From: a virus
Taxonomy: Duplodnaviria > Caudoviricetes
DNA length: 64,000 nt
IMG/VR virus record: IMGVR_UViG_3300034062_006701
Direction: 5' to 3' (one strand)
Shown: in pieces, positions 18,178 through 35,652 of the stretch
Numbering within the stretch: the stretch's first letter is position 1
Layout of the letters: every line of letters begins with the position of its first letter
Notes under the pieces: model-generated
Seen by the model: the letters and a program-made list of their open reading frames with translations, nothing else
Told to the model about the DNA's origin: nothing
The model's database searches: none
Translations under genes and position numbers: made by a program

Positions 18178-18251
18178 TGGTAGGAGATGACGGTAACGCT
18201 CCGCCGAATCCTGAGTGTAAATCAGGTGTTTTACTTTTAAACTAATCTCCC
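18178..18251 (-). tRNA. trnV: tRNA-Val(UAC) with atypical D and T loops
   Basis: CCTGA-TTTACAC-TCAGG anticodon arm; CCA encoded; T-loop AGCGTTA. Confidence 0.85.
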
Positions 18252-22959: not shown

Positions 22960-23054
22960 TGGAAGTGGGTATGGGAATCGAACCCATGCTCGTCCCTCAT
23001 CTAGGGAACACAGATTATAAGTCTGTCGGTGCTATCCAGTTACACTAACCCACC
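22960..23054 (-). tRNA. trnI: tRNA with UAU (Ile) anticodon and a long variable arm
   Basis: ACAGA-CTTATAA-TCTGT; extra arm TTCCCT-AGATG-AGGGA; G1-U72, U73, CCA. Confidence 0.85.
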
Positions 23055-31034: not shown

Positions 31035-32132
31035 TTAGGCTTCCAGGTTAGCTGGAGCAACTGACCGGAAAGGGTCTGGTGCAACTGCTGCGAAGTCAGG
31101 TCCGGTGAAGAACATGTCTGAAGCCAGACGATTAAGTTCCATTCGGAGAGCGATATCCTGATCAGTAGTCCTATGGGTAGCGACGTTGGTCAGGTTATTG
31201 AACAAGTCGTAAGCGTTGACGTTTGAATTAGCAGTCGCCATCCAACGATTACCCTTACCCTTGAGAGCGATACCAGCGTCAGTGTAGCGGCGCTTGATCT
31301 CCTGATCGTTGAACATAGTAGCACCGAGCTCCTTATCAACCCTCATAGCGATTGCACGTGCTGTATTGAACTCACGGAGTGAGGCGTTATGGTTGCGGAG
31401 GCGGTTACCAGCCATCTGTACCTCTTCCTTGATAATGTCACCGGATAGGAACTTACGGACCTGGGTATCGAAGGTCTTCTGGGTGAAGTCTGCGCTATCA
31501 ACAAAACGCTGAGCCATACGATGTACAGCAGTCATTCCGTTAGAGCAGACAAGACGGAGAAGATAAGGATAGAACTGTGACTTGTTAAGCGAGAAGTTCA
31601 TACCAAACCCGCTCTTCCAGACATCCTTTCCATCACCAAATACATCGATGTCAGCGTCAGGGTTCTTGAAGTTGATGGCGATACTGATGTTCGTGGGATC
31701 GAAGTAGAAATCCCTCAGCTCGAGGTTGTTGTTGTTCTCACGGAGATACTCCTCCGTATAGCGTAGACCATTGGAGAGATCTACCGCACGCTCTTCCTTA
31801 ATAGAACGATCGAAGATATTGTTAATCTCATTACTCTGACTATTTAGAACAGCGGTCACGCGCTTGTTCTTCCTAATGTTCGAGAGAGCATTGTGAAGAG
31901 GTGCCCACTGAGAGCTATCATCGCTAATCTCATTAACAAGCTGCTCCTTAACTCCAAGAACATTGATAAGGCTCTTAAGAGACTCCTGACGGAGCTGGTT
32001 ACCATTGTAGAAGAAGCTGTTACCCTTCTTTTCGATGTTTTCGACATCCAGAGGAACAAGGCTGTAACCTTGAAGCGTCTGGCGAATATTGTTGCTTTGG
32101 GCAACGAACTTATCTAGTGTTGTTGTACTCAT
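31035..32132 (-). CDS. DUF932-like phage protein
   Basis: LLRLVCSNGM and AYDLFNNLT motifs; start reassigned to ATG 32132 (MSTTTL). Confidence 0.65.
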   Translation of the reverse strand: MSTTTLDKFVAQSNNIRQTLQGYSLVPLDVENIEKKGNSFFYNGNQLRQESLKSLINVLGVKEQLVNEISDDSSQWAPLHNALSNIRKNKRVTAVLNSQSNEINNIFDRSIKEERAVDLSNGLRYTEEYLRENNNNLELRDFYFDPTNISIAINFKNPDADIDVFGDGKDVWKSGFGMNFSLNKSQFYPYLLRLVCSNGMTAVHRMAQRFVDSADFTQKTFDTQVRKFLSGDIIKEEVQMAGNRLRNHNASLREFNTARAIAMRVDKELGATMFNDQEIKRRYTDAGIALKGKGNRWMATANSNVNAYDLFNNLTNVATHRTTDQDIALRMELNRLASDMFFTGPDFAAVAPDPFRSVAPANLEA

Positions 32133-32217
32133 GACCCCCTTATAATACGGGCACGAGAAAAGGAACTCCAGAAATTTCTTTAGGATTCCGGAAGTACTTT
32201 GTAATTCCTTGATTTTA

Positions 32218-32265
32218 AATAAAAAAACCGGAGCTGGAATGTGACTAGCACCCAACTCCGGTTTT
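32218..32265 (-). terminator. Rho-independent terminator closing the tRNA/ncRNA transcript
   Basis: AAAACCGGAGTTGG...CCAGCTCCGGTTTTTTTT. Confidence 0.75.
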
Positions 32266-32269
32266 CTCT

Positions 32270-32928
32270 TTTATACGATCCTCTCACCAACGCGCTGGTA
32301 TCAACAAGGCATCGAGTCTGCTTTTCTTTATTCCCTCTGCATTTGTGCTGGGGTTACAACACGATTAGGACTTGAGACCTTTGGCGACTACGGATAGCTA
32401 ATCCATTCACCAGTAGCATTACTAAAGAAATTATTGGTATTGAAAGATTTTATTCCGGATTTTGTTCTTTCCTCAACGGGTACCGGCATGGAGCCAGCGC
32501 GCCGTCCAGTCTGTGTTTATTAAAGCAAGGGATCAAAGCTGTACGCAGGTTTTTGGCTCCCCCTCTGAAAATACGTCTACTAACTTACCAACAGACAACT
32601 CAACGCATCTCTCCCACGGATTATACCTACAACGCGGGAACTTATTTTAATGATTACTGGCCTATCGGAGCTAGGAAGTTTATAGCTCCCGTTCTTTAAG
32701 ACTTGTGAAACTCTTAAAACTACTAGGTCGCTACTACCCGCGGCTTCGGACTAGTATTGCTACTACCGAGAACTATACGCAGTAATCAAATTATTATGAC
32801 CGGGGTGGTTGTAATCCATCCTAGTGCACCGGTTGATGAAGGCCTTTCAGAGCGAACCTAGTCACGCACACGTACGGTTCAGACCTTAGATGGTCTTCGG
32901 CTCTTTCGATCGAGCCTGCGAACGGTCA
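32270..32928 (-). ncRNA. Large structured non-coding RNA locus (one large RNA or three modules)
   Basis: No credible ORF; closing helices TGACCG/CGGTCA (32797-32928) and TGATTACTG/CAGTAATCA (32651-32788); many internal hairpins. Confidence 0.6.
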
Positions 32929-32932
32929 AATT

Positions 32933-33005
32933 TGGCAGGGCCGGGAATCGAACCCGGAATCTTGTGGTTATGAGCCACACGACTTAACCGTTTGTCCACC
33001 CTGCG
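32933..33005 (-). tRNA. trnfM: tRNA-Met(CAU), initiator-like
   Basis: C1:C72 mismatch; A11-U24; loop CT-CAT-AA. Confidence 0.85.
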
Positions 33006-33081
33006 TTAAAATGTACTATCAAAGATCAATTCTTATTCCATTAATATATAGTCTATAGTAGGGACTGGCAAGAATAAAAAA

Positions 33082-33158
33082 TGGCACGTGGTGAAAGAAT
33101 CGAACTTTCCCAATCGCTTTTGGAGAGCAATTCGCCTATCCTTGGAACATTACCACGC
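33082..33158 (-). tRNA. trnW: tRNA-Trp(CCA)
   Basis: TTGCT-CTCCAAA-AGCGA; G73; CCA. Confidence 0.92.
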
Positions 33159-33351: not shown

Positions 33352-33800
33352 TGGTGGAGGCGTCGGAGATCTGCCCTCCGAGTCCTTATAATATTTCTCT
33401 TATATTTTCTACACGCTTATGTAAGTTTAGGATTTGATTGACTACAGGCTCCTATGGCTTACCAGCCTATCTTTTTAAGTCTGCCTATATAGATGAAGAG
33501 TTCTATACAACCCCTTGTACTGAGTTTTCTAGGAGTCACAAGTACCTCCATAACCTATTGGTTTAGCTCCCTAAGATCTTTAATAGGATCCAATCTTAGT
33601 TTTTAGGCAGCGAGGAGTGACTCTTCTTCGCAGCTGGCGAGGATATCGTCAGCGTTGTTGAAACAGTACTCAGCTTCTGCTAAGAGCGCATCGATGTTAT
33701 CTTCTGCGTTTAGTTTTTTAGAAGGCTTTTATAGTGGCCAACCTTCCAACCACTGCGTGCAATATAAAACCAGACTATAAGTCGATTCTATGTCGCCCCC
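33352..33800 (-). ncRNA. ssrA: tmRNA, 449 nt
   Basis: 5' GGGGGCGACATAGAATCGAC; 3' CGCCTCCACCA with G3-U70; internal tag ORF 33707-33603 ending LLAA. Confidence 0.95.
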
Positions 33801-33918
33801 ATAAATTTCAAAGATCATTGAGCGTATATGCTCTTATTTCCTATAATATATATGCTCTAGAGAGTGTGGCAAGTCTTAATCTGCTTGGTTTTTAGCTATT
33901 TTTTACTAAATACCTATA

Positions 33919-35652
33919 ATGCCTGATTATAACCCTAATGTTATTGCAAATCCTCAAGTAGCGGAATACGGAAAGTTTACACAATTGAATGGTTCACGCT
34001 TCCCTGCTGTTTCTGTTACAAGGGTTCAATATCCAGATAAATCACAAGCATTTCCAGGGAATACTAACGCTCTCCCTGTAACAACCATCGACATATATCC
34101 AAAGTTTGGCGTATTAAGCTATATAACTAATACTGATGACTTCGCAGTATCACTGAGTGCAGGTCAGATCAATCTCGATACATCGCTAATTGAATTTCAT
34201 ATTTCAAATATAGATGCGGAGACTACTATCATGGCTAACGCTCTCACGGCGACAGAATGGAACACATTTGATGCAGCTTCTGGTATTAATGAGTTGAATT
34301 TTAATTTTCTCAACGCTGTATCGGCGCTAAGTACAACCATTGTCAATCCTGTGATTATCGGTAATAGAGGTAACGGTAATACAGCTACCGTTTATGCTCC
34401 GACTTCCTCTCTTAACGTCAATGTTACAAATACAATTAACAGCATTACAACACCAGAGCCAACACAACTTGATGCTTTTGGTCGTTTAAGAGTCTCAACA
34501 CCTCTCACACTTTTTGATTCTTCCCACCGTTATAGAGATAATAATCTTTGGTCATCATTAACTGCTGTAGGTGGGACCTATGCATTTAATGCAAATCAGG
34601 GATTGATAGATCTAACAGTAAGTTCGTTATCAGGTTCTTCAGTTATCAGAGAAACAACAAAAGTGTTCTCATACCAACCTGGTAAAAGTTTACTCGTAAT
34701 GAATACGTTTGTAATGGCTTCTTCTGCTACAGATTTAAGACAAAGAGTAGGTTATTTTGGAAGTCAGAATGGAATTTATTTTCAATTAGATGATGGTAAT
34801 ATTGGTCTGGTTAAAAGATCTCTTGTGTCGGGTTCTGTTGTAGATACTATAGTTTTAAGGTCTAGTTGGAACGGAGATAAGTTAGATGGGACAGGAGCCT
34901 CTGGATTAACTCTTGATATAACAAAGGCTCAAATATTTTGGATGGATATTGAATGGCTTGGTGTTGGATCAGTTCGTACAGGTTTTATTATTAACGGACA
35001 GTATATTGTTTGTCATTCCTTTCATCATGCTAATATAATTGATTCTACATACATAACAACAGCATCTCTACCTTTAAGATATGAGATTACAAATAAAGCT
35101 GCTACAGGTGTTTCTAAAACTTTAAAGCAGATATGTTCTTCTGTTGTTTCCGAAGGTGGTTATGAATTAAGAGGTCTTCAACAGGCAGTAGGTACCGCTA
35201 TAACAGCACCAAGAAGTCTTGGAACACCCGCAGGAACCTATCGCCCTGTTGTTTCAATTAGATTAAAAACATCTCCAAATAGATTAGATGCAATAGTAAT
35301 ACTAACAGCTTTATCTGTAATGGGTGTTGATACAGGGATATATAGTTGGCGAGTAATTGCTTCTGGAACAACTGTTGATGGTACTTGGCAGGATGCAGGA
35401 GTTGATTCAGCAGTTGAATATAAATTAGATGGAACAAGCATTACTGGCGGAAGAATCTTAGCACAAGGATATCTTACATCAAACGCACAGGGCGCAACAA
35501 CAGTTGATATTTTAAAGGAAGCTCTTTTTAAATTTCAATTAGAAAGAAATGGACTTACAGGTGTTCCTTATGAACTTACTTTAGCAGTAGCAGCAAGTAC
35601 ACAAAATGAAGTTGTACATGCTTCAATGGATTGGGAAGAGATTAGCAGGTAA
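33919..35652 (+). CDS. Probable virion structural protein (cyanophage-like family)
   Basis: TQLDAFGRLRVSTPLTLFDS, FSYQPGKS, WNGDKLDGTG, WLGVG motifs; ACTAAATA box upstream. Confidence 0.75.
   Translation: MPDYNPNVIANPQVAEYGKFTQLNGSRFPAVSVTRVQYPDKSQAFPGNTNALPVTTIDIYPKFGVLSYITNTDDFAVSLSAGQINLDTSLIEFHISNIDAETTIMANALTATEWNTFDAASGINELNFNFLNAVSALSTTIVNPVIIGNRGNGNTATVYAPTSSLNVNVTNTINSITTPEPTQLDAFGRLRVSTPLTLFDSSHRYRDNNLWSSLTAVGGTYAFNANQGLIDLTVSSLSGSSVIRETTKVFSYQPGKSLLVMNTFVMASSATDLRQRVGYFGSQNGIYFQLDDGNIGLVKRSLVSGSVVDTIVLRSSWNGDKLDGTGASGLTLDITKAQIFWMDIEWLGVGSVRTGFIINGQYIVCHSFHHANIIDSTYITTASLPLRYEITNKAATGVSKTLKQICSSVVSEGGYELRGLQQAVGTAITAPRSLGTPAGTYRPVVSIRLKTSPNRLDAIVILTALSVMGVDTGIYSWRVIASGTTVDGTWQDAGVDSAVEYKLDGTSITGGRILAQGYLTSNAQGATTVDILKEALFKFQLERNGLTGVPYELTLAVAASTQNEVVHASMDWEEISR

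Follow-up and report, generated by a model that had tools for sequence, protein, structure and literature searches.

The non-coding RNAs GOLLD and ROOL have recently been shown to form RNA-only cages. To our knowledge few such RNA classes exist, and we know of no function for either of these two. The tRNA cluster of phage T4 includes the stable RNAs species 1 and species 2 (rnaC and rnaD), ~140 nt in length, which derive from the same precursors as the tRNAs and are processed by host RNases. We know of no function for these RNAs and of no ribozyme among them. The twister self-cleaving ribozyme was reportedly described by Roth et al. in 2014, and the biology of bacterial-world twisters is largely unexplained. 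The fold features of the twister class, in which P3 and P5 are optional, have been documented (PMC6154101). GOLLD and ROOL adjoin tRNA islands, with which they are probably co-transcribed (PMC5737381), and they assemble into homo-oligomers through kissing loops, the palindromic words of which covary (PMC12286853).

We analyzed a 64,000-nucleotide piece of an uncultured T4-like phage from lake water, which we call the window. The stretch 32270-32928 is read on the minus strand and is flanked by tRNA-Met and by a hairpin followed by a U-run. An earlier note on this DNA had proposed that the stretch is one large non-coding RNA of ~660 nt. A structured RNA is indeed present. The stretch is not a single large RNA; it is a ribozyme-terminated unit made up of a 512-nt RNA that we call X, a twister, and a small hairpin element. 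Judged by sequence comparison, X constitutes a new family within a known general kind of RNA; at least four helices of its core covary, and several of the single-stranded blocks in the core are invariant.

X resembles GOLLD and ROOL in being non-coding and in lying beside a tRNA island, a likeness of context that is no proof of homology. As in GOLLD, the 3' region is conserved and the 5' region varies, and in the window X directly follows tRNA-Met, as does the GOLLD example env-38; palindromic loop words are a further shared feature (PMC12286853; PMC5737381). This layout would suit a compact or divergent member of GOLLD or ROOL, but such an assignment is very improbable. No GOLLD or ROOL model matched the window stretch at E ≤ 10 with lax filters or the 17 related loci at E ≤ 1. 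X has no match in sequence or structure to either RNA and is smaller, with a core of 230 nt against ~580 nt for ROOL and >800 nt for GOLLD. It reads as a string of closed domains, in contrast to the many multistem junctions and pseudoknots of GOLLD and ROOL; it is followed by a self-cleaving ribozyme, and it has so far been found only in one group of T4-like lake phages. The motifs UGGAU..AUCC..CCAAAG..UGUAACCCCAGC, which the earlier note had loosely likened to GOLLD 3' ends, are in fact twister stems P3, P4, and P5. The companion suggestion of a possible new class holds for the 5' 512 nt; no Rfam model matched X at E ≤ 10 in the window, and none matched it on the related loci.

The RAGATH motifs, RNAs found near twister or hammerhead ribozymes (e.g. 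RAGATH-24), share with X the placement of a structured RNA directly 5' of a twister in phage contigs. X nevertheless matches no Rfam RAGATH model, is several times larger, and sits in a stable-RNA unit of tRNA and tmRNA genes rather than between small early genes. Sub-threshold RAGATH-24 matches lie directly 5' of a twister at L051:174-311 (40 bits) and L047:3628-3735 (32 bits, against a threshold of 45.3), the same order of non-coding RNA then twister as with X. T4 species 1 and 2 are comparable as small stable RNAs inside the tRNA cluster of a T4-type phage but bear no sequence relation to X.

Genomic setting and organization of the unit

The virion structural protein encoded at 33919-35652 of the window is 67% identical to its counterparts in cyanomyoviruses of the Kyanoviridae, and DNA of the window is present across many lake metagenomes. 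The minus strand carries 14 tRNA genes and one tmRNA gene. Neighboring genes encode ThyX, ribonucleotide reductase, dCMP deaminase, Hsp20, and a 5'-3' exonuclease; the 20 neighboring ORFs are nucleotide-metabolism and replication genes, with no RNA ligase, RtcB, or Ro gene among them. An Rfam tRNA match at 18181-18251 (minus strand, 52.2 bits) is missing from the ARAGORN output. ARAGORN gives the tRNA-Ile at 22960-23054 (minus strand, anticodon TAT) a length of 95 nt, and its Rfam score is only 47 bits; this tRNA may contain an insert or a long extra arm.

The unit runs in the order promoter-like site and conserved leader, tRNA-Met, X, type-P1 twister, small hairpin element, and terminator. 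Coordinates of these features are given in Table 1. The piece 33006-33071, spanning promoter-like site and leader, is 80-90% identical in the relatives and lies directly upstream of X in most of them. A matching promoter form is found at 33872-33843 in the tmRNA unit 800 nt upstream, and the 10-mer TGATCTTTGA of the leader recurs in the tmRNA leader (33795-33885, minus strand), so that the tmRNA unit and the tRNA-Met/X unit have TTGCCA..TATATT, GGAA(A)TAAGA, and TGATCTTTGA in common. In the window, L014, and L027 the tRNA-Met gene separates the leader from X; in most relatives it is upstream of the promoter. In two of the other loci the phage tmRNA gene may be interrupted by an intron: L017:872-1492 (also L036) contains a group I intron match (RF00028, 84.6 bits, 1260-1492) that abuts or overlaps the 3' part of a phage tmRNA match at 872-1296, which itself scores only 53 bits.

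Table 1. Features of the unit and their positions in the window
Feature	Position	Strand	Basis or remark
Promoter-like site TTGCCA-17-TATATT	33043..33071	-	Consensus scan, 10/12 matches
Conserved leader with TGATCTTTGA (33028-33019)	33006..33042	-	Nearly invariant in all relatives
tRNA-Met (CAU), C1xC72 mismatch	32933..33005	-	ARAGORN; Rfam tRNA model, 60.9 bits
X RNA, predicted processed form, 512 nt	32421..32932	-	5' end, base after tRNA; 3' end, twister cleavage site
X domain D1 (form v1), closed by GACCG/CGGUC	32798..32927	-	
D1 hairpin GGUUCG/CAACC	32858-32853 and 32835-32831	-	Loop word AAGGCCUU, 32846-32839
X domain D2, optional insert closed by GAUUACUG/CAGUAAUC	32652..32787	-	Predicted structure
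X core (D3), ~230 nt	32426..32650	-	Covariance model R2, 241 bits; pair counts
X core H1	32640-32633 / 32618-32611	-	
X core H2	32610-32602 / 32577-32569	-	
X core H4	32509-32502 / 32479-32472	-	
X core H5	32471-32466 / 32447-32442	-	
X core invariant blocks	GGAGCCAAA, 32560-32552; GGCUCCAUGCC, 32495-32485	-	
Self-complementary word UCCGGA	32454..32459	-	Center of ~18-nt A-rich H5 loop
Type-P1 twister	32323..32430	-	RF03160 sub-threshold, model R1, pair count, minimum-energy fold
Twister P1	32430-32423 / 32330-32323	-	
Twister P2	32418-32416 / 32340-32338	-	
Twister P3	32412-32382	-	
Twister P4 and loop L4	32380-32367	-	
Twister P5	32362-32345	-	
Twister GAGGG	32337-32333	-	
Small stem-loop element, CGAU..AUCG around hairpin ACCA-GCGCGU-UGGU	32276..32316	-	After twister
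Terminator-like hairpin and U-run	32221..32263	-	Read from sequence and fold
365-aa gene, family unassigned	32132-31038	-	Downstream of terminator-like hairpin

The small element after the twister is, as read by eye, common only to the window and L065/L078, where CGAU/AUCG is replaced by CGUU/AACG with one compensatory pair (A-U to U-A). A different element occupies this place in other relatives, and most carry the 12-nt palindrome GAGTTCGAACTC before the terminator. A pairing of GCGCGCUGG in the H4 region with CCAGCGCG in the post-twister element was discarded because the two are not consistently co-present in relatives. The terminator-like hairpin has an A-run on its other side and is therefore two-way. 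The consensus scan gave no terminator hit at 32221-32263, where the loop exceeds the limit of the scan; a different hairpin and U-run occupies the equivalent place in relatives.

The 365-aa gene starts ~90 nt past this hairpin, with the 70 nt upstream of it kept in relatives, and its protein was used to collect the related loci. In the close relative L009, a match to the abiF RNA motif just below threshold (36 versus 37 bits) lies downstream of the gene, at 1573-1609.

The description of the stretch as an ORF-poor, helix-rich, non-coding region beside phage tRNA genes proved correct. No ORF of >62 codons overlaps it, and a 33-codon ORF (32388-32489) was rejected as a coding sequence because it is not kept: in L011 the same ATG runs into a stop codon after 5 codons. 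Folding of the minus strand yields -222 kcal/mol compared with -194 ± 5 for shuffled sequences (z = -5.2), and the plus strand has z = -2.7.

The twister ribozyme

An Rfam scan of 32100-33100 with lax filters matched the type-P1 twister model RF03160 over 32328-32425 with a score of 28.3 bits (E 1e-3), below the gathering score of 67.2 bits, as are the 25.8-36.1 bits of the relatives. RF03160 matches below threshold recur at the syntenic position of L001 and of over 12 lake-metagenome loci. A covariance model built from the relatives (R1) detected exactly one copy per locus, with 62.8 bits for the window. We read the sub-threshold RF03160 scores as the effect of a strict threshold and not as non-membership.

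The 108 nt at 32430-32323 have the architecture of the type-P1 twister: P1, P2, and P4 are accompanied by the optional P3 and P5, the predicted U-A cleavage site lies in the loop joining P1 and P2, L4 pairs with L1 (T1) and with L2 (T2), and GAG.G comes after P2. The minimum-energy fold of the window twister alone contains P1 to P5. Across 14 distinct sequences, 94.7% of the cells of P1-P4 and both pseudoknots are paired, compared with 31-49% when the positions are slid, and 13 of the 25 pairs show compensatory changes; none of 500 shuffles reached the observed values. By stem, pairing is 88% in P1 (5 pairs compensatory), 100% in P2, 98% in P3, and 95% in P4 (3 pairs compensatory). T1 (3 pairs) and T2 (2 pairs) are paired in all 14 sequences, the middle pair of T1 being U-A or U-G. 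The helices listed in the earlier note are all present: GTGTTG/CAGCAC is P5, GGAT/ATCC is the tip of P3, and CCAGCGCG belongs to the hairpin element after the twister.

The copies have their core letters in common and differ in their stems, with P3 and P5 coming and going. P1 is UUUCUUUA/UAAAGAAA in most, UUUUCAU/AUGAAAA in L018, and CGUAU/GUACG in L032; P2, of only 3 pairs, is UGC/GCA, or UAC/GUA in L028; and P4 takes the forms AGG/CCU, CCG/CGG, CCGG/CCGG, and CACG/CGUG. The invariant columns are AAU.CUAC, GUCUCAAGUC, AA, and G.AGAG.G, and the -1 base is U (C in L027). These agree with the letters conserved in the class, namely N-A with a further A at the cleavage site, AAG in L4, AA ahead of the P2 3' strand, and G-A-G past P2. 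Nested covarying stems, a double pseudoknot, and conserved core letters thus all point to membership of the class. The predicted cleavage site is most likely between U32421 and A32420. The differences from the type, apart from the score, are the 3-pair P2, a T1 of CUC+GAG (GGG in the window, GAG in most relatives) for the Rfam consensus CCC+GGG, and a T2 of AC+GU for GC+GC. Both of these T1 and T2 departures are compensatory, and they explain the low RF03160 score.

A first, narrow sequence pattern for the twister retrieved L001 only, and one that demanded GAGGG retrieved chance matches having neither P1 nor P2. A pattern for the twister form retrieved 48 loci in IMG/VR with diverse P1-P4. Neighboring twisters in IMG/VR contigs have T1 pairings of CAC/GUG, UCC/GGA, or CGC/GCG, and other phage-contig twisters score 32-57 bits. 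Because such pseudoknot covariation is common among phage-contig twisters, the window twister belongs to a known class as an ordinary, unannotated member. The Rfam gathering score lies well above the scores of phage twisters of this form, and these go unannotated. Several phage contigs are rich in ribozymes, every twister match in them being below the gathering score: L062 has four twister matches; L053 has three, together with a weak hammerhead III match and a sub-threshold RAGATH-4 match (73 versus 104 bits); and L059 has one twister and three hammerhead II matches.

A twister follows X in almost every member, the divergent L068 and L073 among them, with a different P1 in these two. At L032/L044, X lies between ORFs with no adjacent twister, the twister being 6 kb away, and L001, L029, and other loci have a twister without X. 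These exceptions show that X and the twister are separable modules. Ahead of the twister, L001:3533-3660 and L029:1249-1820 have another conserved segment in place of X. By eye this segment resembles the small RNA region after the tmRNA in other relatives, a likeness suggestive of recombination between the island's RNA modules.

The position of the 365-aa gene and the conservation upstream of it raise the question of whether the twister serves this gene, trimming or insulating read-through mRNA, with X as a long structured leader or spacer that has no role of its own. Twister processing of polycistronic transcripts has been proposed in a review (PMC6765202). We consider this role improbable at the present locus. 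The hairpin and U-run separate the twister from the gene both in the window and in relatives, X stands ahead of an unrelated small ORF in L032/L044, and the 365-aa gene is present without X or twister in L002 and L021-L023. Moreover, a mere spacer would not be expected to keep at least four covarying helices and invariant loops over 55-90% identity.

Conserved core and modular 5' domains of X

We infer the ends of X from the tRNA boundary and the twister cleavage site. The stretch is conserved in ~20 related lake-phage contigs. In BLAST comparisons the segment 32413-32633 of the window is common to nearly all relatives at 72-91% identity; the likeness extends over all of X in L015, to 32933, and as far as 32800 in L012. 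One X is present in each near-complete genome (177-218 kb). A pattern made from the invariant blocks of X detected further copies in IMG/VR and gave no match in 185,579 prokaryote genomes. A looser pattern, GAGCCAAA..GGCTCCATGCC, added one true member (L065/L078), its remaining hits being chance matches in coding regions. A 'distant' BLASTN search of the stretch against 50,697 phage records matched the tRNA alone. Models R2 (for the core) and R1 detected neither X nor twister in the cultured marine cyanomyoviruses S-RIM50, S-WAM2, and S-RIM8, with positive controls that worked.

The core is conserved, 16 distinct sequences having a mean column identity of 77% in a MAFFT alignment; in our own alignment the mean pairwise identity is 73% and the minimum 55%. 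The MAFFT alignment was not fitted to any structure. In it, 93.6% of core pairs are formed, against 35-55% when the positions are slid, with values of 100% for H1, 97.9% for H2, and 98.2% for H4. Model R2 gave 26 matches, including the divergent L073 and L068, and compensatory changes occur in 19 of the 34 core pairs across these matches. H5 covaries as GAAAG/CUUUC, GAAGG/CCUUC, and UUGAG/CUCAA, and one clade needs a shift of one base. Covariation, on which the earlier note had made its RNA proposal depend, is therefore present in the X core as well as in the twister.

The proposed long-range helix between GGAGCCA (32560-32554) and TGGCTCC (32496-32490) has a different standing. Both strands are present and invariant in the X family, so the pairing GGAGCC:GGCUCC is only a possible one; L073 has UUAGCC where the others have GGAGCC, its pairing partner being unchanged. 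The alternative given by alifold, GGGG:UCCC, is likewise invariant on both sides, and any pairing in the center of the core, from GGAGCC to AAACAC, is provisional. Two candidate functions for core segments were rejected. The H1 loop UAUAAU is not conserved as a promoter or sigma-binding mimic would be (AAUUAU, AAUAAU, and CCACUACGU in relatives). The segment GAGGAAAG..UCCGG, which looks like RNase P CR-I, is the covarying helix H5 (UUGAG in L031).

The 5' part of X is variable. X ranges in length from 240 to 512 nt, with 512 nt in the window and ~240 nt in L014 and L027, which have no D1. D1 exists in two very different forms, between which both its closing helix and its first hairpin covary: the closing helix becomes GACUAG/CUAGUC in form v2, and the first hairpin changes from GGCUC/GAGCC to AGUCU/AGACU or CAGAUCC/GGAUCUG. 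D2 is found only in the window, L012/L041, L015/L034, and L031, and no compensatory changes were seen among these four lineages.

A variable island of this kind could contain debris, and the movement of tRNA-Met, the coming and going of D1 and D2, and the absence of X from L001 and L029 all testify to rearrangement. That the stretch consists of non-functional remains, whether decayed tRNA genes or recombination scars, is nevertheless scarcely credible. The compensatory changes in core and twister and the invariant blocks speak against decay, as does the single-copy occurrence of X among genomes with core sequences up to 45% different; covariation brings the debris explanation close to refutation.

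Self-complementary loops and a proposed model for processing and assembly

The H5 loop carries centered self-complementary words that differ among lineages. Five such words occur (UCCGGA, UUCCGGAA, AUACUAGUAU, UUCUAGAA, and CUCUAGAG), in which three symmetric positions change and self-complementarity is kept. The word in the D1 loop is AAGGCCUU or AAAGGCCUUU and becomes AAACGCGUUU in relatives, GGCC being replaced by CGCG. Both loops thus stay self-complementary while their letters change, as seen across few independent lineages and, for D1, in one change. Adjacent bases within one loop cannot pair together. Palindrome-to-palindrome changes were used by Kretsch et al. in 2025 to support the intermolecular kissing loops of OLE and GOLLD (PMC12286853). 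Given this precedent and the inability of the loop bases to pair among themselves, we infer pairing between two copies of X. The sequence signature is like that of the symmetric kissing loops L9.3 of OLE and L21a of GOLLD, and it is suggestive of a symmetric contact between two X copies through the H5 word UCCGGA. With two such loops, X might form assemblies larger than dimers.

A different explanation of the loop words is that X works as a stable monomer in complex with a protein of the phage or its host. The words would then serve for protein recognition, or would be palindromic DNA sites of a dimeric DNA-binding protein. The structure and conservation of X are compatible with both explanations, and the invariant single-stranded blocks GGAGCCAAA and GGCUCCAUGCC and the loops of H1 and H2 would suit protein binding. 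The palindrome change in D1 is a single event, and a palindrome could likewise be preserved through co-evolution with a dimeric DNA-binding protein. The behavior of the H5 word makes this explanation rather unlikely, however, since the word takes five forms, varied at three symmetric positions, and in each remains self-complementary and centered in the loop of a covarying helix, whereas a fixed protein site would be expected to keep its bases and not to covary. A DNA operator amid a transcribed structured RNA would be unusual, and there is no consistently linked gene, the 365-aa gene being found without X in L002 and L021-L023.

We therefore retain self-association as the preferred reading of the loop words and tentatively propose that X is a new class of self-assembling phage RNA, a smaller and unrelated counterpart of GOLLD and ROOL, in which two kissing loops would lead to dimers, rings, or cages and whose 3' end would be a twister-made 2',3'-cyclic phosphate. 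As such it would add to the few known classes an independent, smaller, and modular one from T4-like lake phages with the same sequence signature of self-association.

For the locus as a whole, we think it reasonably probable that it is a stable-RNA unit of a T4-like lake phage, consisting of promoter and leader, tRNA-Met, a modular X that acts as a dimer or larger assembly, twister, hairpin element, and terminator. A sigma-70-like promoter and the conserved leader would drive a transcript running from tRNA-Met through X, twister, and small hairpin element to the terminator. In the window, release of the tRNA by host tRNA-processing enzymes would generate the 5' end of X, and self-cleavage of the twister between U32421 and A32420 would generate its 3' end. 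The type-P1 ribozyme is cut at its 5' edge, and X would therefore keep only the 5' strand of P1. By the established chemistry of self-cleaving ribozymes, X would end in a 2',3'-cyclic phosphate, and ribozyme, small element, and terminator would be discarded as a 5'-OH fragment (PMC6765202). Symmetric loop-loop contacts between copies would then hold X as a dimer or larger RNA assembly, which may serve as a scaffold or as a decoy that sequesters a host factor.

X offers a testable role for a bacterial-world twister, at the 3' end of a stable non-coding RNA made with a tRNA in one unit. If the self-assembly reading is true, the twister gains a defined job, that of making the end of a stable RNA. 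The same design of tRNA, insert, and ribozyme is used in synthetic biology to release exact RNAs.

Public sequencing runs, for which assembled contigs only were used and which we therefore do not count for or against a transcript, its ends, or its level, contained no RNA contig over 32034-32431 and one DNA contig that spans through. Metatranscriptome contigs cover parts of X at word depths of 3.6-11.9. In run X24, a library labeled metatranscriptomic that may be DNA, a 155-nt assembled contig of a relative's X core (window 32513-32581) had a word depth of 2662, and the tmRNA contigs of this run had word depths of 36-42.
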